A stretch of 64,000 bases of DNA from Terriglobia bacterium. GTDB taxonomy: Bacteria; Acidobacteriota; Terriglobia; 2-12-FULL-54-10. The position numbers and the translations under genes were made by a program. The stretch covers positions 1,689,093 to 1,753,092 of the forward strand of contig OZ240237.1 in assembly GCA_965198025.1 (NCBI GenBank), in the 5' to 3' direction. Positions 1,807 to 63,632 of the stretch are shown here, piece by piece; the first letter of the stretch is position 1, and the number at the start of each line of letters is the position of its first letter. Below the pieces are notes generated by a model that saw only the letters and a list, made by a program, of their open reading frames with translations, ran no database searches and was not told the DNA's origin.

Positions 1807-2013
1807 ACGGGACCTTATTCGCAAGCCCTTTCTCCTGTGGTTGCGCCAGGACTGGTTGGTTGCGTCATCTTTGCGGGCGATTCCCTCCATGACATTGCAC
1901 TCTTTACTGAATTGGCTCACGCGCTGTCACCCCAATGGAGCCTGTATTGACATCACCGAATGGCCGGTGGTAAACAAGGAGCGACTCGCTGACTGGGGGG
2001 ATCGGAACAGGCC

Positions 2014-3357
2014 GTGGCGACAATTCTGTTAGCCGATGACAGTGGCACTGCCCAGCGAATGGGTGTACAGATTCTTTCCGCGGAAGGACATGAAGTCAAG
2101 ACGGTCAGCAATGGTCAGGCCGCCATCAAGATGCTGAGCCAGTTCTCCCCGGACCTGATCGTGGCCGACGTCTTCATGCCGGGGAAGACTGGCTACGAAG
2201 TGTGCGAGTTCGTGAAGTCCAACGCAGAATCCTCCTGGATTCCTGTGCTGCTGATCGTGGCTCCAATGGAGCCGTACGACGCGACCGAGGGGCAGCGCGT
2301 AAAGGCGGACGGCCTCGTTACCAAGCCGCTGGACAAGTCGAATCTGATCGAAACGGTCCAATCGTTGTTGGCTTCTACCGAAAAGCCCGCCGCGCAACAG
2401 CCGGAGCCTCCGCCTGAGCCCAACGAGTTGCACGAATTTTCCCGGGAAGAAGACCCTACCATCCTCGCGATCACCTCGCCCTTGACAGCGGAGATTGACA
2501 TTCCGGAAGAGATGATGAATCAGCCCATCAGTCTCGGCAGCGAGCTGCTCGAACCGGAGTCTGTCGAGACAGAACCGTCGGCGGGAGAACAACTGCTCGA
2601 ACCGGAACCTGTCGAAACGGAGCCGTCTGCGGATGAGGGGATGGCCGACGAAGCGCCCCCACCGGCCCTAGTAGAGAACGAATCCCCAGATATAGTGCAG
2701 GACCCCGTTTTCGTCTCGATATCAGAACCGGTTGAACCTGAAGAGATCGGGCGGATCTTTGCCGAAATCAAGGATTCCCCGGAGGAACAACCCTCTTTGG
2801 AGGAACCCGAGCCTCTTATCTCGGCAACTTTGGCCCATGAAACTGAGGAATCCGAAACGCCCGTCCCGGCGGTTTCGGCCCAGGAATCTGACTCCACACC
2901 GGAGGCCTCCTGGACCGGTGAGCTGGCCCAAGTACCGGAAGAAGACAAGAAGTTGTTTGTACCGCACCAGGACTGGCAAGGCCTTGTGAACATGGTCCAG
3001 GAGGCCGGCGAAGACGGGCAGTTTCCCGCCGTTTCTTCAGCCGGCGCCGGAGTGGACTCGGCCACTAAGACACCTGCCGAGGAACATCTATCCGAAGAAG
3101 CTGAACCCGCTGCCGCCCAACCGTCCGAAGAACCCAAATGGATTCCGCAGTTGGCGGCGGAAGAGCATACACCACCTGCCCAGCCAGAACCCTCTTCTTC
3201 CGCTGATACGACGGAGATGACGTTTCCACAGGTCGCACCGCTCAATTACGGCACGGTGGAACAGATTGTCCGGGAAACCATTGAAGGAGTCATGCCGCAG
3301 ATTGTGGAGCGCATCGCCAAGGCGACCGGAATCCAATTCCCGAAGGATAGGGACTAA
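2014..3357 (+). CDS. CheY-like response regulator receiver domain protein with a ~320 aa acidic Glu/Pro-rich disordered C-terminal tail
   Basis: N-terminus ILLADDSG...PDLIVADVFMPGKTGYEVCEFVKS is a REC domain with the phosphoacceptor Asp; the rest is low-complexity E/P/S-rich with no output domain seen. Confidence 0.8.
   Translation: MATILLADDSGTAQRMGVQILSAEGHEVKTVSNGQAAIKMLSQFSPDLIVADVFMPGKTGYEVCEFVKSNAESSWIPVLLIVAPMEPYDATEGQRVKADGLVTKPLDKSNLIETVQSLLASTEKPAAQQPEPPPEPNELHEFSREEDPTILAITSPLTAEIDIPEEMMNQPISLGSELLEPESVETEPSAGEQLLEPEPVETEPSADEGMADEAPPPALVENESPDIVQDPVFVSISEPVEPEEIGRIFAEIKDSPEEQPSLEEPEPLISATLAHETEESETPVPAVSAQESDSTPEASWTGELAQVPEEDKKLFVPHQDWQGLVNMVQEAGEDGQFPAVSSAGAGVDSATKTPAEEHLSEEAEPAAAQPSEEPKWIPQLAAEEHTPPAQPEPSSSADTTEMTFPQVAPLNYGTVEQIVRETIEGVMPQIVERIAKATGIQFPKDRD
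2536..2631 (+). repeat. in-frame tandem duplication of a 48-nt unit (LLEPE[S/P]VETEPSA[G/D]E x2) inside the response-regulator tail
   Basis: gagctgctcgaaccggagtctgtcgagacagaaccgtcggcgggagaa is followed by the near-identical caactgctcgaaccggaacctgtcgaaacggagccgtctgcggatgag. Confidence 0.7.
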
Positions 3358-3418
3358 TTCAGTCCCTCGGAGGTTGTGTCCGCACAAGGTCCTACGCGCT
3401 GCAGGGTGCGCGTTCCCG

Positions 3419-3777: not shown

Positions 3778-5949
3778 ATGATCACGCTTTCTTCCTCCGT
3801 TCAGTTTGTCAAAGGTGTGGGAGCCTCGCGAGCTGAAACCTTGCGGCAGAAGGCAATTCAGACGGTCGAAGATCTGCTGTTTTACCTCCCCTTCCGCTAT
3901 GAAGACCGCACACGTTTGCGCGGACCGTCCGAAGTGCGTGCTGGCGAAGTTGCCACGGTGATCGCCCGCGTGCGTTCGGCGGGAGCGCTTCCGGTGCGGC
4001 GAAACCGCGTAAAGATCTTTTGTGTCGACGTAGGCGAACGTGGCGCGTATTTTCGCTGCAAGTGGTTCAACTCCGCTTGGCTGGAGCGGATGATCCGGCC
4101 GGGCCAGTATATCGCGCTCCACGGCAAAGTGGAGTTCGACGCCTATGAGGGCGGCCTGCAGATGATGCAGCCGCAATTTGAGATTCTTCCGGAATTCACC
4201 GCCCCACTCGATACCGGCGGCATCAGCGCGGCCGGGCATTCGCTCGAAGTCGGGCGCATCGTTCCGATCTATGAAGCCGTCGGCAAGGGCCGCCTGACAT
4301 CGCGGTTCTTCCGAAATGCCGTCTATTCCGCGCTGGAATCCCTTTCCGGAATCGAGGACCCGCTGCCCCGGACCGTTTCCGAACCGCTCGGATTTCTCTC
4401 GCGCTATGAGGCGTTTCGCAACGCTCATTTTCCTCCCCCCGGCACGCGGCTCGCAGACCTGGATTCGTTCCGCAGTCCGGCTCAGATTCGGCTCATCTTT
4501 GAGGAATTTTTTCTGCTCGAAACAGGCCTCGCGCTCAAGAGAATGCGCGCCCATGAACAGCCCGGTATTGCCTTCCGTACCGACTCGCGCATCCGCGAAT
4601 CGCTCAAACGCATCCTTGCCTTTCGTCCGACCACGGCACAGAAGCGAGTGCTCGGCGAGATCGTAGAGGACATGCGGGCCTCTCGACCCATGCATCGGCT
4701 GCTCCAAGGTGATGTCGGCTGCGGAAAAACTCTGGTTGCGCTCCAGGCTGCCGTTGTTGCGATCGAAAACGGCTATCAGGTGGCCGTCATGGCGCCGACG
4801 GAGATCCTCGCCGCGCAGCACTTCTTCTATTTCCGACGGCTCCTCGCACGGTCCGGCTACACTTCAGCTCTATTGAGCGGAAGTGCAGGATCGCGGGAAA
4901 AGCGTGCGGTCAAGAAGCTGCTCCGGGAAGGAGCGGCCCAGATCGGCATCGGCACCCACGCCCTGATCGAGGGCGACGTCGAGTTCAAAGCGCTCGGTTT
5001 GGTGATCATTGACGAACAGCACCGCTTCGGCGTCATGCAGCGCCTGCGGCTAATGCAGAAGGCGCAAACCCCGGACACGCTCGTCATGACGGCTACTCCT
5101 ATCCCACGCACCCTGGCTCTGACCGTCTACGGCGACTTGGATGTTTCCGTGATCGACGAAATGCCTGCGGGCCGCCGGCCTATTCTGACGCGGCAGATAT
5201 CCAGTGAGGAAGCCGACCAGGCCTATGAATTCGCGCGATCGCAGGTCGCAGCAGGCGCTCAGGTGTTTGTCGTCTGCCCGGTCATCGAGGACACCTCCGT
5301 CCTGGGAGGGACTGCGTCGAGTCGCCAGACCCGCCGCGCGGCCAGTGATCTTAAATCTGCGCTGCGGATGCACGAGCATTTGGCGAAGCACGTGTTCCCG
5401 GGCATTCCGGTCGGCCTGCTGCACGGCAGGATGACGTCGGAGGAGAAGGAACGCACCATGGGCGCCTTTCAGGCTGGCGACCTGCCCATTCTGGTCGGTA
5501 CTACCGTGGTGGAGGTCGGCGTGGACGTGCCCAACGCCACCGTCATGATCATTGAACAAGCTGAGCGGTTCGGACTGGCGCAACTGCATCAACTGCGAGG
5601 CCGCGTCGGCCGAGGGGCCCGCCAGTCTCATTGTCTGCTGCTTGCCTCCCGCGATCTTTCCGATGCCGGCCGGCAGAGACTCGCCGCCCTGGAGCAAACT
5701 CTCAGCGGTTTCGAGATCGCCGAACTCGACATGCGCCTGCGCGGGCCTGGAGAGTTTTTGGGTACGCGTCAGTCGGGGCTTCCAGTGCTCCGCGTCGCCA
5801 ACTTGCTGCGCGATCGGGAAATTCTGGAGCAAGCGCGCCGCCTGGCTCTCGACTTTGTCGACCGCGGTGAGCGCAAGGAGCTGGATCGGCTGGCCAGTTA
5901 CATCAAAGGCAACTGGAACCGCCGCCAGGGTCTCATCCGGGTCGGGTAG
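3778..5949 (+). CDS. recG: ATP-dependent DNA helicase RecG
   Basis: 723 aa; N-terminal wedge/OB region, Walker A GDVGCGKT, DEQHRFG box, helicase C-terminal motifs (QLRGRVGRG) and a RecG-type C-terminus. Confidence 0.9.
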   Translation: MITLSSSVQFVKGVGASRAETLRQKAIQTVEDLLFYLPFRYEDRTRLRGPSEVRAGEVATVIARVRSAGALPVRRNRVKIFCVDVGERGAYFRCKWFNSAWLERMIRPGQYIALHGKVEFDAYEGGLQMMQPQFEILPEFTAPLDTGGISAAGHSLEVGRIVPIYEAVGKGRLTSRFFRNAVYSALESLSGIEDPLPRTVSEPLGFLSRYEAFRNAHFPPPGTRLADLDSFRSPAQIRLIFEEFFLLETGLALKRMRAHEQPGIAFRTDSRIRESLKRILAFRPTTAQKRVLGEIVEDMRASRPMHRLLQGDVGCGKTLVALQAAVVAIENGYQVAVMAPTEILAAQHFFYFRRLLARSGYTSALLSGSAGSREKRAVKKLLREGAAQIGIGTHALIEGDVEFKALGLVIIDEQHRFGVMQRLRLMQKAQTPDTLVMTATPIPRTLALTVYGDLDVSVIDEMPAGRRPILTRQISSEEADQAYEFARSQVAAGAQVFVVCPVIEDTSVLGGTASSRQTRRAASDLKSALRMHEHLAKHVFPGIPVGLLHGRMTSEEKERTMGAFQAGDLPILVGTTVVEVGVDVPNATVMIIEQAERFGLAQLHQLRGRVGRGARQSHCLLLASRDLSDAGRQRLAALEQTLSGFEIAELDMRLRGPGEFLGTRQSGLPVLRVANLLRDREILEQARRLALDFVDRGERKELDRLASYIKGNWNRRQGLIRVG

Positions 5950-32789: not shown

Positions 32790-33015
32790 CAGGAATGCCT
32801 GCCCCTACTTTAGGACAGGCGAAGAGCAGATCCCTCGTCACTGCGTTCCTCGGGATGACACGGCAAAGGAGAGTGGATAGGGAGATGGAACACAGGCCCT
32901 GGCGGGCTGTGCTCGAAGGGGACAGGCCAGAGGCCTGTCGCTACTTAGGACAGGCAAGAATGTTGGTCGCTGCCTGGTCGACAGGCCGGAGGCCTGTCGC
33001 TACTTGGCAGGCAGG
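32790..33015 (+). repeat. cluster of REP/MITE-like palindromic repeats (ggcaggaatgcctgcc hairpins; gacaggcc-nga-ggcctgtc-gctactt hairpins; a ~60-nt unit shared with 35737-35795)
   Basis: ggcaggaatgcctgcccctactt occurs at both ends of the region; gacaggccagaggcctgtcgctactt and gacaggccggaggcctgtcgctactt occur inside; gatgacacggcaaaggagagtggat.gggagatgga.cacaggccctggcgggctgtgctc is duplicated at 35737. Confidence 0.6.
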
Positions 33016-33034: not shown

Positions 33035-34513
33035 CTACTCCCAGCCGTACTCCGGCCAGCGGCGGTCGACAAGTTCTTCATCTTCCGGAGCGGGTTGGAC
33101 GGTGGGGGGGAAACGCCCGCCCCATTCGGGCTTGGGATCGTACATCCAAGTGCGGGTGGCGTCGATCAAAACGCGGTTCCAGATGCCGGAGCCGAGCTTG
33201 CCCACGTCGCGTTCCTCCAGGGGCGAGGAAGGGTCGGCCGGGGAGCCGAACGAGCCGGGGAACACGACAAGATCGTCCTTGCCGGCGTTGACTCGGTACG
33301 CAATAGCCCAGTCGAGGGCTTCATAGTTGCTGATGTCAATGTCATCGTCGGTGACGATGACGTGCTTGTACCGCCAGCTGGCAGCGCCTGAGCCCCACAG
33401 AGCGGCGGCCACCTGCTTGGCATGTCCCTGGTAGCGTTTATTGATGGCAACACAAATATTGGTGCCGTTGGTCACCGGATGAACATGCACATTGGCGATG
33501 CCGGGAATGCCCTGCTGTTCGAGGATGTTCCACGCGATGGCCGCCCGCTGGATGGACGACATCATGCTATTTTCGGTGTAAGACCCGGGGAGGGTACCCT
33601 CCTGGGTGCCGCGCAGAATGGGATTGTTACGGTACGTGATGCACTCGACCCGGATGACCGGACGCGGCGTAGGAACGTCACCGGTGTGGCCGGTGTATTC
33701 GCCGAACGGACCTTCCGGCTCAAAGGTTTTGGGGTCCGGATCAATTACACCCTCGATGACAATTTCGGCGGCGGCGGGGACCAACAGATCACTGGTTTCG
33801 CAGCGCACTACGGAAAGCGGCTCGCCGCGGTAGCCGCCCATCACGTCGTATTCGCAGACGCCCGCCGGAACCGGGCTGCCGCTCAGGAAATCCATGATGG
33901 GATCGTAGCCGATTACGGCGGCAACGGGCATCGGCTGCTTTCTCTGGCGGTACTTGGTGAAGGTCTGGCCGCCGTGCTGGCTGGCGACAATCAGAACCGG
34001 GATGGTGCTGCGGCGTCCGATCATGCCGCGGTAGGTGCCGATGTTCTGGACGCCGGTGTCGGGGTCGCGCGTGACGATACCCGCGAAGGTAAGCAGGTAG
34101 CGGCCGCCGTCGCGGAAGTGCCATTTGGGCGCCGGGAACTGAGCAAGGTCCACCGCCTCCCCGCGCACGATGTTTTCCTTGACCGGACCCGTTTTCACTT
34201 CGGCTGGCGGGATCGCCTCGCGATTCTTTCCGCGGACGTACTGCACCAGATCGCGCGTAGGCACGTCCGGCGGCAGGCCCAGAACCATGGCCAGCCGGGA
34301 CCGCTTGTGCAGCAGGGCCGCAGCGAGCCTCCGGCAGGCAGTGTTGCGATGGTCCTGGATGTTCTCAAAGAGCAGCGCCGGGCCTTTGGAGGTGAACGAG
34401 CGCCGGGCAATCGCGCCAATTTCGCGGTCCCAGTTCACGACTGCGTTGATGCGCTTCAATTCCCCGGCCGCTTCAAAGCGGTCGAGCCAAGTTCTCAGAT
34501 CAGCGAATCCCAT
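33035..34513 (-). CDS. UbiD-family (prenylated-FMN dependent) aromatic acid decarboxylase
   Basis: 492 aa; UbiD N-terminal block MGFADLRTWLDRFEAAGELKRI...; conserved family regions along its length; no ubiX adjacent. Confidence 0.9.
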   Translation of the reverse strand: MGFADLRTWLDRFEAAGELKRINAVVNWDREIGAIARRSFTSKGPALLFENIQDHRNTACRRLAAALLHKRSRLAMVLGLPPDVPTRDLVQYVRGKNREAIPPAEVKTGPVKENIVRGEAVDLAQFPAPKWHFRDGGRYLLTFAGIVTRDPDTGVQNIGTYRGMIGRRSTIPVLIVASQHGGQTFTKYRQRKQPMPVAAVIGYDPIMDFLSGSPVPAGVCEYDVMGGYRGEPLSVVRCETSDLLVPAAAEIVIEGVIDPDPKTFEPEGPFGEYTGHTGDVPTPRPVIRVECITYRNNPILRGTQEGTLPGSYTENSMMSSIQRAAIAWNILEQQGIPGIANVHVHPVTNGTNICVAINKRYQGHAKQVAAALWGSGAASWRYKHVIVTDDDIDISNYEALDWAIAYRVNAGKDDLVVFPGSFGSPADPSSPLEERDVGKLGSGIWNRVLIDATRTWMYDPKPEWGGRFPPTVQPAPEDEELVDRRWPEYGWE

Positions 34514-34699
34514 CAGGTACTCCCGTGCCGTGCGAAACTCCGATTATAGACAAGAACGGACACGGAGACACGGTGATACTGAAATTCGGTAGTGTCTTAA
34601 TTTGGAGGGGAGGGCGATGGCTACTGAAAATCCGCCATGTTGACAATCTAATTGGAAGAACCGGATACTAACGGTACGGTGGGAAAGAGGGGGGGCGAG

Positions 34700-34978
34700 A
34701 TGTCACTGGCTGATCCCAGGGAAATCGCTAGAATTGCTGAGGAAATTTACAGGCAGAAATATAAAGAGCATTTCGAGAAAGCTCACTCTGGCAAGTTCGT
34801 TGTAATTGACATCCGAAGCAAAGAAGCTCATATAGGAGATTTCGCCGAGGAAGCGTTCGAGATAGCCAGAAAGAAAGCCCCCCATGGCGTATTCCACCTA
34901 ATTCGCATTGGCGCTCCAGGCGCATTCAGGGTGGGCTATGCCGGACAACAAGAAGACATCTGGGATTGGACACTTTGA
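34700..34978 (+). CDS. small hypothetical protein (~92 aa) of the kind found paired with retropepsin-like proteases (DUF5678-like; tentative)
   Basis: Strong RBS GAGGGGGGG before ATG 34700; protein MSLADPREIARIAEEIYRQKYKEHFEKAHSGKFVVIDIRSKEAHIGDF...; its 3' end overlaps the next ORF. Confidence 0.45.
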   Translation: MSLADPREIARIAEEIYRQKYKEHFEKAHSGKFVVIDIRSKEAHIGDFAEEAFEIARKKAPHGVFHLIRIGAPGAFRVGYAGQQEDIWDWTL

Positions 34979-35360
34979 CCAGCAGGGTAATGCTTGTTTG
35001 AAACTCCATATATGCGGGGTAAGGCATGATCCGCCAGGTCCAGAGTACGAAGCGATAATCGACACGGGATTCACTGGATTTATTCAACTCCCGTTGGCAG
35101 AAGCGTTGTCGCTTTCTCTTCCTTTGGAGGGAACCAACTCGGTGACATTGGCTGATGGAAAAAGCTTGGTCATGCTCACCGCGCTGGCTTGGGTGACTCT
35201 GATGGAAAGAACAGAAGCCGGAGTGGTTTTGTTGTCGATGTCCTCCAATGACATTCTTGTTGGAATGGATTTCTTGAGGCGATTTGAGAGATCATTGGTG
35301 GTTTCCAGACAATTAGGGGTTGTCCTGGTAGAAGAAAACGCGTGGCAGAAAAAGCCTTAA
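34938..35360 (+). CDS. retropepsin-like (clan AA) aspartic protease domain protein; start uncertain (34908 or 34938)
   Basis: Active-site motif IIDTGFTGFIQLP and a downstream LVGMDFLRRF flap/dimer region typical of bacterial retropepsin-like proteins. Confidence 0.65.
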   Translation: MPDNKKTSGIGHFDQQGNACLKLHICGVRHDPPGPEYEAIIDTGFTGFIQLPLAEALSLSLPLEGTNSVTLADGKSLVMLTALAWVTLMERTEAGVVLLSMSSNDILVGMDFLRRFERSLVVSRQLGVVLVEENAWQKKP

Positions 35361-35611
35361 TGCCCTGGAACCAGCCGGGACACCTCCCACACCTGCCTTA
35401 GCTGTCAAACGATTTTCCCATGAGGGCCTCTAGCGCCCTTCCAATCCCCTCGACGATACTCTTGTCCTCATCCTTCCAAGGATACCCGCCACGGGAAGAA
35501 ATCGATAGAGTGCTTAGCGGGATTCGCAGATGCCGGAACCTGCAGAACCCATCATGGAATCGCTCGACGATTTGGGCCTGCGGCCCTAAAGCCAAATCAG
35601 GACACTACCGG

Positions 35612-35830
35612 TTGGTGTCTTAATTTCAAAAGAGAAGAGCAGATCCCTCGTCGCCCCTCACCAACGGCTCGGCGAAACGACATCAATATGTCCGAAACGA
35701 CATCAATATGTCGTTTCGTGTCCTCGGGATGACACGGCAAAGGAGAGTGGATCGGGAGATGGAGCACAGGCCCTGGCGGGCTGTGCTCTATGGAGACAGG
35801 TCGGAGGCCTGTCGCTACTTTGCGGCTGCG
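35612..35830 (+). repeat. MITE/structured-element copy related to 32805-32950, plus a local direct repeat and perfect palindrome (gaaacgacatcaatatgtc x2)
   Basis: Shares gagcagatccctcgtc, gatgacacggcaaaggagagtggatcgggagatggagcacaggccctggcgggctgtgctc and gacaggtcggaggcctgtcgctactt with the 32.8 kb cluster. Confidence 0.55.
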
Positions 35831-35972
35831 CTACACCAAACCCTGAAAATGGTCTAGAATTCAGGCTGAGGAATTATCGAAGGCAACTGACAATACGAGA
35901 TACGCTATCGAAGGGACTTGCCATGTCGGGCCTCTGTAGCTACTATAGGGCTACATATTGGGAGGCGTCCAG

Positions 35973-36230
35973 ATGAGTTCCGATACGGTCGTTCGCGCTC
36001 GGATCGATAGCGACACTAAAGCACGGGCTACGGAAGCGCTTCAAGCCATGGGCCTGTCGGTATCCGATGCCATCCGTCTGCTGTTGCTGCGAGTGGCGAA
36101 TGAGAAACGGCTGCCATTCGCCGTCCGGGTGCCGAATGTCGCTACGGTCAAGGCAATGGAGGAACTGGGCGAGGGCAAGGGCAAACGCTTCGGCAACTCC
36201 GAGGAACTGTTCCGGGATCTCGGCGTCTGA
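35973..36230 (+). CDS. dinJ: type II antitoxin, DinJ/RelB family
   Basis: MSSDTVVRARIDSDTKARATEALQAMGLSVSDAIRLLLLRVANEKRLPF matches the RHH DinJ antitoxin fold; 2 nt upstream of the yafQ-like gene. Confidence 0.8.
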   Translation: MSSDTVVRARIDSDTKARATEALQAMGLSVSDAIRLLLLRVANEKRLPFAVRVPNVATVKAMEELGEGKGKRFGNSEELFRDLGV

Positions 36231-36232
36231 CA

Positions 36233-36499
36233 ATGCTGACCCCGGTTCGATCCACGCAGTTCAAACGCGACGTAAGAAGAGCCCAGAAGCGCGGCAAAGA
36301 TCTGATCAAGCTGCGGGTGTTGCTGGCGTCGTTGATCCAGCAGGAGCCGTTATCCGCCCGCTATCTCGATCATCCACTCAGGGGATTTGGGAAGGGCTAT
36401 CGGGAGGCCCATCTCGAGCCGAACTGGCTTTTGATTTACCGCACCGAAGGAGATGAATTGCATCTGGTCCGTACCGGCTGCCCATTCCGATCTCTTTAA
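36233..36499 (+). CDS. yafQ: type II toxin YafQ (RelE/ParE superfamily mRNA interferase)
   Basis: FKRDVRRAQKRGKDLIKLRVLLASLIQQEPLSARYLDHPLRGFGKGYREAHLEPNWLLIYR...LVRTGCPFRS is closely similar to YafQ proteins. Confidence 0.85.
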   Translation: MLTPVRSTQFKRDVRRAQKRGKDLIKLRVLLASLIQQEPLSARYLDHPLRGFGKGYREAHLEPNWLLIYRTEGDELHLVRTGCPFRSL

Positions 36500-36801
36500 G
36501 GAGTAAATCAGGAAGAGAGCTCTATTTATTTCGGCCTTATCTTTGAGAGCTTGCGACAGGCGCTACGACAGGAAGAGCACAGGCCAGTACGACAGGCCGG
36601 AGGTCTGTCGCTACCTGGGACCAGCGGGATGCTGGCGCTACGCTCTTCGGGATGACATGCTTTTGGTGGTGTCCTAATTTTTGCAAAATCAAGACACCGC
36701 CAAAATGGAAGATGCGGTGAAACAACCCTGTCGTTATAATAGAATAGTTACCAGACCGCCTTGGCGCTGCATTACGAAGCGACTTCCGGGAGGGCGAACC
36801 G

Positions 36802-38262
36802 ATGACACGAAGACAAGTTGGGATGGATTCCAAGGAAATTTTTTCCGCAGCCTTGGCCGGGATCATTGTGCTGAGCGCCGCCGTATTGTGGATGCGCTCC
36901 GTCCCGCTGCGCGAGTTACAAGCCAGCGCGGAGCGGGCAGGCCGGCAGCCGACGGGCACTGCGCAACTGGTCGCCGTGCAGACGATCCCGGGATGGGCGG
37001 AGGGCGAGATGTGCGAGTGGGTTCCGGCGAGCGCGGGATCGAACTTGCTGTCGTTGCTGCCGGAACCGCAGTCACAGGACGTGCCCACACGGAGCGGACC
37101 GGCACCGACACCAACCCCCGAGGAATTCGCAGAAGTCAACGCGCGTTCCCCGTTGCGCATGGTCAAGGACCACTATCCCTCCTACAGTTCGGTGGCGGTC
37201 GATTTGAAGAACAACGAAGTGATCATGACCGACGAGAGCACCTTCTCGATCCTGACCTATGACCGCATGACGAACACGCCGGCGAGCGCTGCGTTCAGCG
37301 AGCCGAAGCGGCGCATCGGCGGGCACCAGACCTGGATCGAGTATCAATGCGGCGTCTACGTGGATCAGGCCTCGGGGGACATCTATGCGGTAAACAACGA
37401 CACCGTGGACCGTCTGGTAGTCTTCTCTCGGGAGGCGCGGGGGGACGTGCCACCCGATCGCATCCTGCATACGCCGCACACGACCTACGGGATTGCGGTG
37501 GACGAGCCGCACCAGGAACTCTTTATGACGGTGCAGGAGGCGGCCGCGGTCAGCGTGTTTCGGAAGTTCGCCGCGGAGCACGAAGAACCGATCCGCCTGC
37601 TGCAGGGAGAGCGAACGCTGCTGGCGGACCCGCACGGGATTGCGGTGGACTCAACACGCGACCTGCTGTTCGTATCCAATTTCGGTTCCGTCTCCAGGAA
37701 AGACCCGACCCAGATCCGAGAAGACGCCACCGGATACTACGAGGGGACGGACAAGGCCAACTGGCCGCTGTCGCGGAACGCCGCCATCCCGGGGAGCGGC
37801 AAGTTCCTGCCTGCTTCGATTACCGTCTACCCGCGCGACGCCGAGGGTGACGTGGCCCCGATGCGCAAGATCGAAGGCTCCCGAACACAGTTGAACTGGC
37901 CGACGGCGCTGGTGGTGGATCCGGAGCGGGGAGACCTGTTCGTGGCCAACGATACCGGAGACTCCATCCTTGTGTTTGACGTCATGGCAAGCGGCAATGT
38001 GGCTCCCAAGCGCGTCATCAAAGGCCCACAGAGCATGATCAAGAGTCCCACGGGCGTCTTCTACGACTGGGAGCACGATGAGCTCTGGGTGGCGAATTTC
38101 GGGAATCACACGGCCACCGTCTATCCTGCCACGGCGTCGGGCGACGTGGCGCCTCTGCGCGTGGTTCGCAGCGCTCCGCGTAACACAGGCACGCCCAATA
38201 TCGGCAATGCCTATGCTCCGGCGTATGACTCGCGGCGTGATCAGATCATGGTGCCCAACTGA
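36802..38262 (+). CDS. membrane-anchored YVTN-like beta-propeller repeat protein, N-terminal part; ends at an in-frame TGA in the middle of a blade (probably one gene with 38263-39069)
   Basis: GGGAGGG RBS; N-terminal TM helix; repeated ~48-aa blades of the form GDVAP.R.I.G..T.L..P.G...D....EL.VAN......VF; the ORF stops at TGA 38260-38262 right after a ...MVPN turn. Confidence 0.7.
   Translation: MTRRQVGMDSKEIFSAALAGIIVLSAAVLWMRSVPLRELQASAERAGRQPTGTAQLVAVQTIPGWAEGEMCEWVPASAGSNLLSLLPEPQSQDVPTRSGPAPTPTPEEFAEVNARSPLRMVKDHYPSYSSVAVDLKNNEVIMTDESTFSILTYDRMTNTPASAAFSEPKRRIGGHQTWIEYQCGVYVDQASGDIYAVNNDTVDRLVVFSREARGDVPPDRILHTPHTTYGIAVDEPHQELFMTVQEAAAVSVFRKFAAEHEEPIRLLQGERTLLADPHGIAVDSTRDLLFVSNFGSVSRKDPTQIREDATGYYEGTDKANWPLSRNAAIPGSGKFLPASITVYPRDAEGDVAPMRKIEGSRTQLNWPTALVVDPERGDLFVANDTGDSILVFDVMASGNVAPKRVIKGPQSMIKSPTGVFYDWEHDELWVANFGNHTATVYPATASGDVAPLRVVRSAPRNTGTPNIGNAYAPAYDSRRDQIMVPN
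38260..38262 (+). other. in-frame UGA inside a beta-propeller blade: candidate selenocysteine codon or programmed readthrough site
   Basis: TGA is followed directly by GTG in the same frame; the identical arrangement (aac tga gtg ... cac ccg cag att gc) is seen in the paralog at 59111-59113. Confidence 0.4.
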
Positions 38263-63289: not shown

Positions 63290-63632
63290 TCATTTTCAGC
63301 ATTGCTGTATAGCCCCCAAGTAACGACAGGCCTCAAGTAGGGACAGGCCTCTGGCCTGTCCCCTTCGAGCACAGCCGACAGGCCGCCAGGTCTGTACTCG
63401 CAAGCCCAGGTGTTGCGGGTCCGCAATCCAAGTCCCGGAGGTGGTTTTTAGGCCACAGCGTGCCGGACTGGTTCCCTTTGCCGCCGGCCCCACCCATGCA
63501 TCCCCCGCAAGGCCCGAAAACACCCCTTTTTTAGTGTTTTTATAGTGAATTTGGTATTCCGAAGGAACGGAAGGAACCGCAAGAACCGAATCTGCCGCAG
63601 GAACCGAAAAACGCCGGAAACGGCGTTTTTTC
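63290..63632 (-). repeat. composite dispersed intergenic element, copy B (inverted relative to 5950-6296), including the terminator hairpin aaaaacgccggaaacggcgttttt
   Basis: The reverse complement is nearly identical to 5950-6140 and shares the end motif gggctatacagcaa.gctgaaaatg; its middle contains gacaggccagaggcctgtcc-ctactt hairpins of the REP-like family. Confidence 0.6.

Follow-up and report, generated by a model that had tools for sequence, protein, structure and literature searches.

In a 64,000-nucleotide (nt) stretch of a Terriglobia bacterium genome (assembly GCA_965198025.1, contig OZ240237.1, positions 1,689,093 to 1,753,092; hereafter the window), two overlapping open reading frames (ORFs) encode a small protein (ORF1, the partner) and an aspartic protease of predicted retropepsin fold (ORF2), and homologues of the two genes occur together, in the same order, across bacterial phyla. 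Judging from sequence comparisons among loci, this cassette is a self-contained, horizontally mobile two-gene module. Its genomic behavior leads us to propose that the partner holds back or regulates the protease by binding to it, that the partner is present in excess, and that the protease is toxin- or effector-like when released, a reading to which we assign a probability of roughly 0.45. A sequence-only reading of the window had described two overlapping ORFs at 34700-35360 on the plus strand, and these are present, with products of 92 and 140 amino acids (aa). The overlap, estimated there at about 40-70 nt, is 41 nt from the ATG at 34938 or 71 nt from the alternative TTG at 34908, the protease lying in the +1 frame; the ATG is taken as the protease start because homologues start within a few residues of it. 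Considering the large families of homologues, both ORFs are real genes rather than chance ORFs.

The association of the two genes was examined from both sides. A protease-seeded scan covered one genome per species from 185,579 species, in which at least 599 stretches matched, at least 441 of them encoding a relative, and more than 400 of the species genomes carry a protease of this clade; together with the 1394 partner-family representatives at 50% identity retrieved by an exhaustive HMMER search, these numbers convey the scale of the finding. The best 80 loci formed the co-occurrence set, in which the partner was sought by profile in six frames. It lies directly upstream on the same strand in all 78 testable loci, the two remaining ones having the protease at the very edge of a contig. 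The genomes include Acidobacteriota (several classes), Alpha- and Gammaproteobacteria, Rhodothermota (Rhodothermales), Chloroflexota, SAR324, Cyanobacteria (the cultured Leptolyngbya PCC 6406), Binatia, Eisenbacteria, Kapaibacterium and others. A partner-seeded scan of metagenomes, which used partner alignment A1 since alignment A3 was too diverse, yielded 61 loci with the protease directly downstream in 55, contig ends in 2 and no protease in 4, such that 55 of 59 testable loci keep the pair. Pairwise identities of partner and protease correlate (r = 0.67) and their mean divergence is equal (37% and 36%), indicating that partner and protease travel together. Pairing has almost no exceptions, and gene order is constant, partner then protease. 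The recurring association with a small partner supposed in the sequence-only reading thus holds well beyond the window, and homologues of the two genes clearly do co-occur.

The second protein had been identified as a retropepsin from its IIDTGFTGF and LVGMDFLRRF segments; both are present, and structure prediction with AlphaFold2 (AF2) followed by Foldseek comparison supports the fold. The homologues form no fewer than 181 clusters, the lowest E-values reaching 1e-64. Scores against Pfam families gag-asp_proteas (PF13975, 25.3 bits) and Asp_protease_2 (PF13650, 23.9 bits) are below the gathering thresholds of 28.2 and 24.3, and some homologues carry precomputed hits to both families; from the near-threshold scores and these hits, the protease is taken as a borderline relative of PF13975/PF13650. 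The best NCBIfam match, TIGR03698 (clan_AA_DTGF; E 8.5e-10), reaches 38.9 bits against a curated cutoff of 57.35, suggesting a related but distinct clade. The AF2 model, built from 34 homologues, is confident (predicted local distance difference test score, pLDDT, 87). Its top match in the Protein Data Bank (PDB) is the protease (PR) of xenotropic murine leukemia virus-related virus (XMRV; 3slz, E 2.8e-4, TM-scores 0.59/0.70), followed by Rickettsia APRc (5c9b), with the RVP domains of Ddi1 and the PR of human immunodeficiency virus 1 (HIV-1) also retrieved, all with probability 1.00; RloA (9g58) is among the matches as well. In the homologue alignment, D42, T43 and G44 are invariant, and G109, M110, D111, F112, L113, R114 and F116 are invariant or nearly so; in the window protease, L107-V108-G109 precedes MDFLRRF, and residues 110-116 form a helix in the model. 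Of 67 intact homologues, 65 keep the motif DTGF[TS]G. The first 7 residues are modelled with low confidence and are followed by a conserved GxGHxD strand. No transmembrane or signal-like segment was found in the protein, which is accordingly predicted to be cytosolic. From the model and the alignment, ORF2 is best described as an aspartic protease of retropepsin fold that is soluble, has its DTG motif intact and looks competent for catalysis.

Proteases of this general kind have been noticed before. The COG5550/TIGR03698 clan_AA_DTGF type (AF_0612 type) is about 130-150 aa long and shares the DTGF motif, the retropepsin fold and the lack of a signal peptide; unlike the cassette protease, no obligate upstream partner or overlap was found described for COG5550. 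To our knowledge, no function has become known for the retropepsin-like proteases of the COG5550 and TIGR03698 types in the cytoplasm of bacteria and archaea, which were first noticed about 20 years ago. Regarding the single-domain clan AA peptidases of the COG5550/AF_0612 type, it has been stated that "little is known" (PMC2642776). Rickettsia APRc, Pseudomonas RimB and RloA-C have the same fold as the cassette protease; APRc is membrane-anchored, RloA-C are secreted or periplasmic, and RimB acts in the RimABK complex on the ribosomal protein RpsF (PMC12239564, PMC11957791). The cassette protease, by contrast, is predicted to be cytosolic, and none of the others has its partner.

The partner belongs to a family that grows steeply with search sensitivity, from 17 close clusters with a single-sequence query to 651 clusters at 90% identity with a profile. 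Its conserved core reads GKFVVIDV...P.GVFHLIRIGAPGAF(R/K)V and is followed by a variable, disordered C-terminal tail. Among the family members listed, none carries a Pfam domain or an informative name, and the window partner gave no Pfam hit at E<=1 and no NCBIfam, PADLOC or meaningful PHROG hit. The AF2 model (pLDDT 79.7) comprises a helix (6-28), a hairpin (33-37/42-46), a second helix (49-59), a strand (64-69), a short strand (78-80) and a disordered tail (82-92). The small protein had been called alpha-helical, a description that the model contradicts: it is predicted to be a cytosolic alpha/beta protein with two helices and three to four strands, not all-helical. No solved relative was found in the PDB. 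A link to DUF5678 (PF18929) had also been proposed, and part of it survives: two of 30 diverse homologues match DUF5678 weakly (best E 0.0049, below Pfam significance), it is the sole Pfam family matched by more than one of the 30, and the best-scoring Foldseek match of the model in the BFVD viral library comes from a Pandoravirus, a "DUF5678 domain-containing protein" (E 0.012, TM 0.55/0.60), whereas the window protein itself has no such Pfam hit. DUF5678, which has no known function, resembles the partner in size and in its helix, beta-hairpin, helix, strand layout. The partner may thus be called DUF5678-like on the strength of a weak resemblance in profile and model, with membership in DUF5678 not established.

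The two genes are joined in an unusual way. At 71 of 79 loci from genomes and 50 of 55 from metagenomes, the protease reads in the +1 frame with respect to the partner. Most overlaps in both sets measure 23-56 nt, peaking at 29 and 38; a few loci have ATGA-type 4-nt overlaps (L074, L080) or short gaps (L019, L045, L061, L078). Shine-Dalgarno (SD)-like motifs precede 43 of 70 partner starts as opposed to 26 of 70 protease starts, which suggests weaker translation of the protease, coupled to that of the partner. In the window, a putative purine-rich SD, GAGGGGGG, lies 5' of the partner start, and a candidate sigma-70-like promoter was picked up by a consensus scan as a pattern match alone (10 of 12 positions). 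The long out-of-frame overlap means that gene callers often drop one gene of the pair. In the source assembly (locus L001), the partner is called and the protease (L001 4239-4660) is not, and the latter has no 100%-identity match in a collection of 5.8 billion proteins, its best match being 81%; conversely, the partner is uncalled in the public annotation of L082 and L083 (about 4750-5040). Under-annotation of the module in databases is therefore a practical annotation problem.

Overlap in another frame at the end of an upstream ORF is also how the retropepsin ORF is arranged in the Gag-Pro of retroviruses and long terminal repeat (LTR) retroelements, and a programmed +1 frameshift at the end of the partner ORF could in principle produce a low-frequency fusion, as in Ty elements and prfB. 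Such recoding would fit the predominance of the +1 frame, the natural fusions with junctions inside the overlap described below, and the end of the window partner, CTT TGA C (CUU UGA C), the prfB heptamer, at which a +1 slip would lead into the protease frame. However, this shift-prone heptamer is not conserved, being found at 4 of 70 loci including the window among 46 different stop heptamers. The W-x-W and stop codon of the partner are by-products of the protease G-x-G and F/Y-D or G-N codons, and CTT TGA C in the window is a by-product of the protease His-Phe-Asp codons. Moreover, almost every protease ORF carries an ATG of its own where the conserved N-terminus begins, and L074, L080, L019, L061 and L078 show other-frame 4-nt overlaps or short gaps. 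Recoding is thus very improbable.

Among the 150 best partner-family representatives, three are single-polypeptide fusions of partner and protease: P0248 (258 aa), P0301 (251 aa) and P0349 (193 aa). The 90% cluster of P0301 has 5 members on 5 contigs from two sources (JGI and ENA) and that of P0349 has 3 members, indicating that these are real genes and not isolated sequencing errors; single fused proteins occur in at least two lineages. Two longer partner homologues, P0143 and P0147, were considered as fusions and rejected as upstream mis-starts. At the junction, the partner segment ...PGAF(R/K)VS... is joined to the protease N-terminal strand via about 8 residues. As "Rosetta stone" cases, the fusions argue that partner and protease act together physically, and the joining of the upstream protein close to the N-terminal strand, the strand that would form the dimer interface if retroviral proteases are a guide, is a second point of likeness to Gag-Pro.

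The fusions also bear on a polyprotein-like explanation, in which the partner would be the substrate or pro-domain of the protease, cut between PGAF and R/K-V-S within its conserved hydrophobic segment, with cleavage maturing or releasing one or both proteins; the split overlapping genes would then descend from a single precursor. Retropepsins are known to cut at extended sites of hydrophobic character, for example between PGNF and LQS in HIV. The PGAF(R/K)VS segment is the most conserved part of the partner, it follows strand 3 in a lower-confidence loop (pLDDT 63 for the block 71-80), and the fusions join precisely this segment to the protease. A precedent for protease and substrate-partner modules, often fused, is COG2856-Xre (ImmA/ImmR) (PMC2701414). 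On the other hand, conservation of the motif may reflect fold or interface alone, and the two proteins are separate in most lineages, so that no processing is needed to part them. We regard processing of this kind as unlikely. The COG2856-Xre system, in which the protease (an ImmA/IrrE Zn-protease) cleaves its own partner (PMC2701414), resembles the cassette as a mobile, frequently fused unit of protease and small partner, but differs in having a metalloprotease instead of an aspartic protease and a helix-turn-helix (HTH) repressor as partner instead of a DUF5678-like alpha/beta protein without an HTH.

Decay of the cassette is one-sided. In the protease-seeded set, 8 loci retain an intact partner beside a protease that is frameshifted or truncated, both genes are broken at one, and none has a broken partner with an intact protease; the count leaves out L067 and L073, whose apparently split genes are single ORFs carrying an insertion. 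Among the four partner-seeded loci without protease, three (L129, L130 and L135, at about 2400-2840) are protease deletions, in which the partner ORF runs into a remnant of the protease N-terminus (...GHFDSLRNPS...). All stages coexist in one ruvC-trmB slot of Thermoanaerobaculia-like genomes, with intact pairs (L011, L013, L014, L017), a frameshifted protease (L051) and the partner alone (L129, L130, L135). Such a bias would be expected of a dispensable or dangerous protease and a protective partner. Pairing by itself assigns no roles, and a protease could in principle serve as the antidote by destroying a harmful small protein. This reversal of roles is nevertheless highly implausible, because orphan partners persist after deletion or frameshift of the protease and no intact protease occurs without a partner; furthermore, the partner is upstream with the better SD, the usual position of an antitoxin.

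Several features point to horizontal movement. DNA similarity between the window and its nearest relatives (75%) spans only 34697-35336, that is, the two ORFs, and the nearest relatives of the window protease are from Terriglobia (78%), Alphaproteobacteria (76%) and Pseudomonadales (72%). The GC content of the cassette is about 50%, compared with 60-65% in its flanks. All-against-all clustering of flanking ORFs from the 80 loci revealed no conserved third gene, only the two module genes recurring, and gave in addition small groups that reflect shared synteny among close relatives; minus-strand ORFs that clustered together inside the module were read as antisense shadows owing to their heterogeneous positions and lengths. 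Nine annotated neighborhoods all differ, comprising metabolic, radical SAM, TPR-CHAT, AAA_14/DUF4143, NYN and Uma2 genes, and in several of them IS1-like, Transposase_31 or Transposase_mut genes adjoin the module. At about 10 of the 80 loci, insertion sequence (IS) genes of the IS1/IS1595-like or Transposase_31 type lie about 30-220 nt from the module in varying orientation, and the module may be an IS passenger or occupy an insertion hotspot. Tandem copies also occur: L019 has three partners in a row and then one protease (1745-2950), and L045 has a partner with a protease fragment followed by a second complete module (1984-3366).

These data also have to be set against a more mundane explanation, namely that the protease is an ordinary cellular enzyme served by an accessory factor of its own (adaptor, chaperone or specificity subunit), in a niche physiological role that is neither selfish nor toxic. 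Strict pairing, co-evolution and fusions would suit any obligate two-subunit enzyme, other bacterial retropepsin-like proteases such as RimB and RloA-C are physiological (PMC11957791, PMC12239564), plasmid or phage copies are lacking (see below), and the module keeps a stable syntenic slot in Thermoanaerobaculia. This explanation sits poorly with the patchy cross-phylum distribution at high identity, the atypical GC content of the cassette, the variable, IS-rich neighborhoods and the tandem duplications in L019 and L045. In addition, the protease has been lost repeatedly with the partner kept, whereas a mere helper should decay too. We consider an accessory factor doubtful.

Under the proposed restraint of the protease by its partner, the partner would bind the protease directly and control it as an inhibitor or as a pro-domain supplied in trans. 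Its synthesis from the upstream start would exceed that of the protease, which would be produced in small, coupled amounts; such an excess is expected because the partner has a promoter-proximal SD start and the protease starts inside the partner tail, often without an SD. When the partner is depleted, the protease would dimerize and cleave cytoplasmic targets, like the toxin of a toxin-antitoxin (TA) pair. A toxin-like protease would explain why genomes keep the partner after loss of the protease and never the reverse. A more specific version, held only tentatively, is that the cassette is a new TA or abortive-infection-type module whose effector is a cytoplasmic retropepsin held inactive by the DUF5678-like partner at or near its N-terminal strand; this strand would be the dimer-interface strand if retroviral proteases are a valid guide.

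The resemblance to type II TA systems includes a compact overlapping operon with the small, protective-looking gene first, probably coupled translation, patchy horizontal spread, variable neighborhoods, and decay of the presumed effector with survival of its partner. The differences are the overlap of 23-56 nt rather than 1-4 nt, the fusions, the lack of plasmid or phage copies and a partner without a known DNA-binding domain. The presumed effector would differ in kind as well, being an aspartic protease; such enzymes are not listed as toxins in the main TA compendium (PMC2701414).

Several observations weigh against a restrained, toxin-like protease. The module was not found by tblastn in 72,556 plasmids (PLSDB) or 50,697 phage records (INPHARED), nor by a pattern scan of IMG/VR. 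Addiction modules are usually common on plasmids and phages. Neither protein matched the defence models of PADLOC-DB 2.0 at E<=1, and a PHROGs scan for known phage families gave nothing. The decay numbers are modest, the protease gene is 1.5 times longer than that of the partner, and many of the genomes are long-read metagenome-assembled genomes, which are prone to indels. Stable partner-protease fusions are unusual for TA pairs, the partner has no recognizable DNA-binding fold and a near-neutral isoelectric point of about 6, unlike classical type II antitoxins, and the pair looks vertically stable in some lineages, as in the Thermoanaerobaculia ruvC-trmB slot. The likeness to addiction or defence modules suggested in the sequence-only reading is therefore upheld in part: the cassette shows several mobile addiction-type features, but it matches no PADLOC defence model and has no plasmid, phage or viral copies.

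As for novelty, literature searches turned up no account of the partner family, of its obligate pairing with the protease, of the conserved +1 overlap or of the fusions; the kind of protease is known but uncharacterized, and the other four elements appear undescribed. A large clade of cytoplasmic retropepsins with an obligate partner offers a handle for co-expression, crystallization and toxicity/rescue tests, and the cassette provides the first genomic context for a DUF5678-like fold. If the partner proves to be an inhibitor or antitoxin, the effectors of TA or defence systems would gain a new enzymatic class, and aspartic proteases one of their rare natural protein inhibitors. A retropepsin toxin held by its partner would be the first aspartic-protease toxin with the first dedicated protein regulator of a bacterial retropepsin, and a bacterial counterpart of the Gag-Pro precursors that restrain retroviral protease.

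Table 1. Coordinates of the cassette, its motifs and surrounding features (window positions unless a locus is named)
Feature	Position	Strand	Remarks
Partner gene (ORF1)	34700-34978 (ATG 34700 to TGA 34976-34978)	+	92 aa, begins MSLADPREIARIAEEIY; from the ORF list
Protease gene (ORF2)	34938-35360 (ATG 34938)	+	140 aa; alternative start TTG 34908 gives 150 aa
Out-of-frame overlap	34938-34978	+	41 nt; frame 0 encodes the predicted disordered partner tail, +1 frame the protease N-terminus up to the conserved GxGHxD strand
Sigma-70-like promoter (candidate)	34640-34669	+	TTGACA, 18-nt spacer, GATACT; about 30 nt 5' of partner start
Predicted catalytic Asp-Thr-Gly codons	35061-35069	+	D42-T43-G44 of IIDTGFTGF; from sequence, invariant in homologue alignment
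GMDFLRRF	35262-35285	+	second retropepsin signature (hydrophobic-hydrophobic-Gly, then helix)
CTT TGA C at partner stop	34973-34979	+	matches the heptamer of the +1 frameshift site in E. coli prfB
RelB antitoxin	35973-36230 as called		longest ORF from TTG 35958; E 8e-21
YafQ toxin	36233-36499		E 3.5e-24; 2 nt from RelB
REP-like hairpin, four of five copies	32921-32944, 32980-33003, 35795-35818, 36591-36614	+	GACAGGCC-NNN-GGCCTGTCGCTAC
REP-like hairpin, fifth copy	63337-63360	-	same hairpin
Longer intergenic repeat	32847-32946 / 35721-35820		100-nt copies, 93% identical; contains the REP-like hairpin
Exact 19-mer	32821 and 35634		GAAGAGCAGATCCCTCGTC; part of longer repeat region 32821-32946 / 35634-35820
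Exact tandem 20-nt repeat	35673-35692 / 35699-35718		CGAAACGACATCAATATGTC, two copies; between cassette and longer repeat
19-nt inverted repeat	34587-34605; 35592-35610		CGGTAGTGTCTTAATTTGG and CCAAATCAGGACACTACCG; 89% complementary, bracketing the cassette
IS-type neighbors at other loci	L002 1547-2527; L015/L153 3663-4616; L084 3602-4522; L152 5497-6399; L082/L083 3393-4343		

Downstream of the cassette, the TA pair noted in the sequence-only reading is a genuine RelB/YafQ pair, but it is not a recurring neighbor: no RelB or YafQ homologue was found at any of the 152 other module loci, indicating that the adjacency is incidental and unique to the window among 153 loci. RelB/YafQ and the cassette perhaps mark a local hotspot for small mobile modules. 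A low-GC island at 34500-36750 (about 49-56% GC against 60-68% in the flanks) covers the cassette, a repeat-rich spacer and part of RelB/YafQ, between a UbiD-like gene (33035-34513, minus strand) and an NHL-repeat gene (36802-38262), and its composition suggests a hotspot of acquired small modules.

The description of the cassette as repeat-flanked applies loosely. Hairpins resembling repetitive extragenic palindromic (REP) sequences do flank it, with five copies in the window against 0 expected by chance, four of them clustering between genes in the region of the UbiD-like gene, the cassette and RelB/YafQ. As cassette ends, however, the repeats were rejected, since DNA similarity stops at the ORF boundaries and the repeats belong to the dispersed REP-like hairpin. 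The inverted repeat around the cassette showed no DNA-level conservation in related loci. The longer intergenic repeat could be an element of the miniature inverted-repeat transposable element (MITE) type or a REP-associated one; it translates as LGMTRQRRVDREMEHRPWRAVL in two spurious ORFs. The tandem repeat at 35673-35718 is also an imperfect palindrome, and a direct copy of GTGTCTTAATTT lies at about 35611, beside the inverted repeat.

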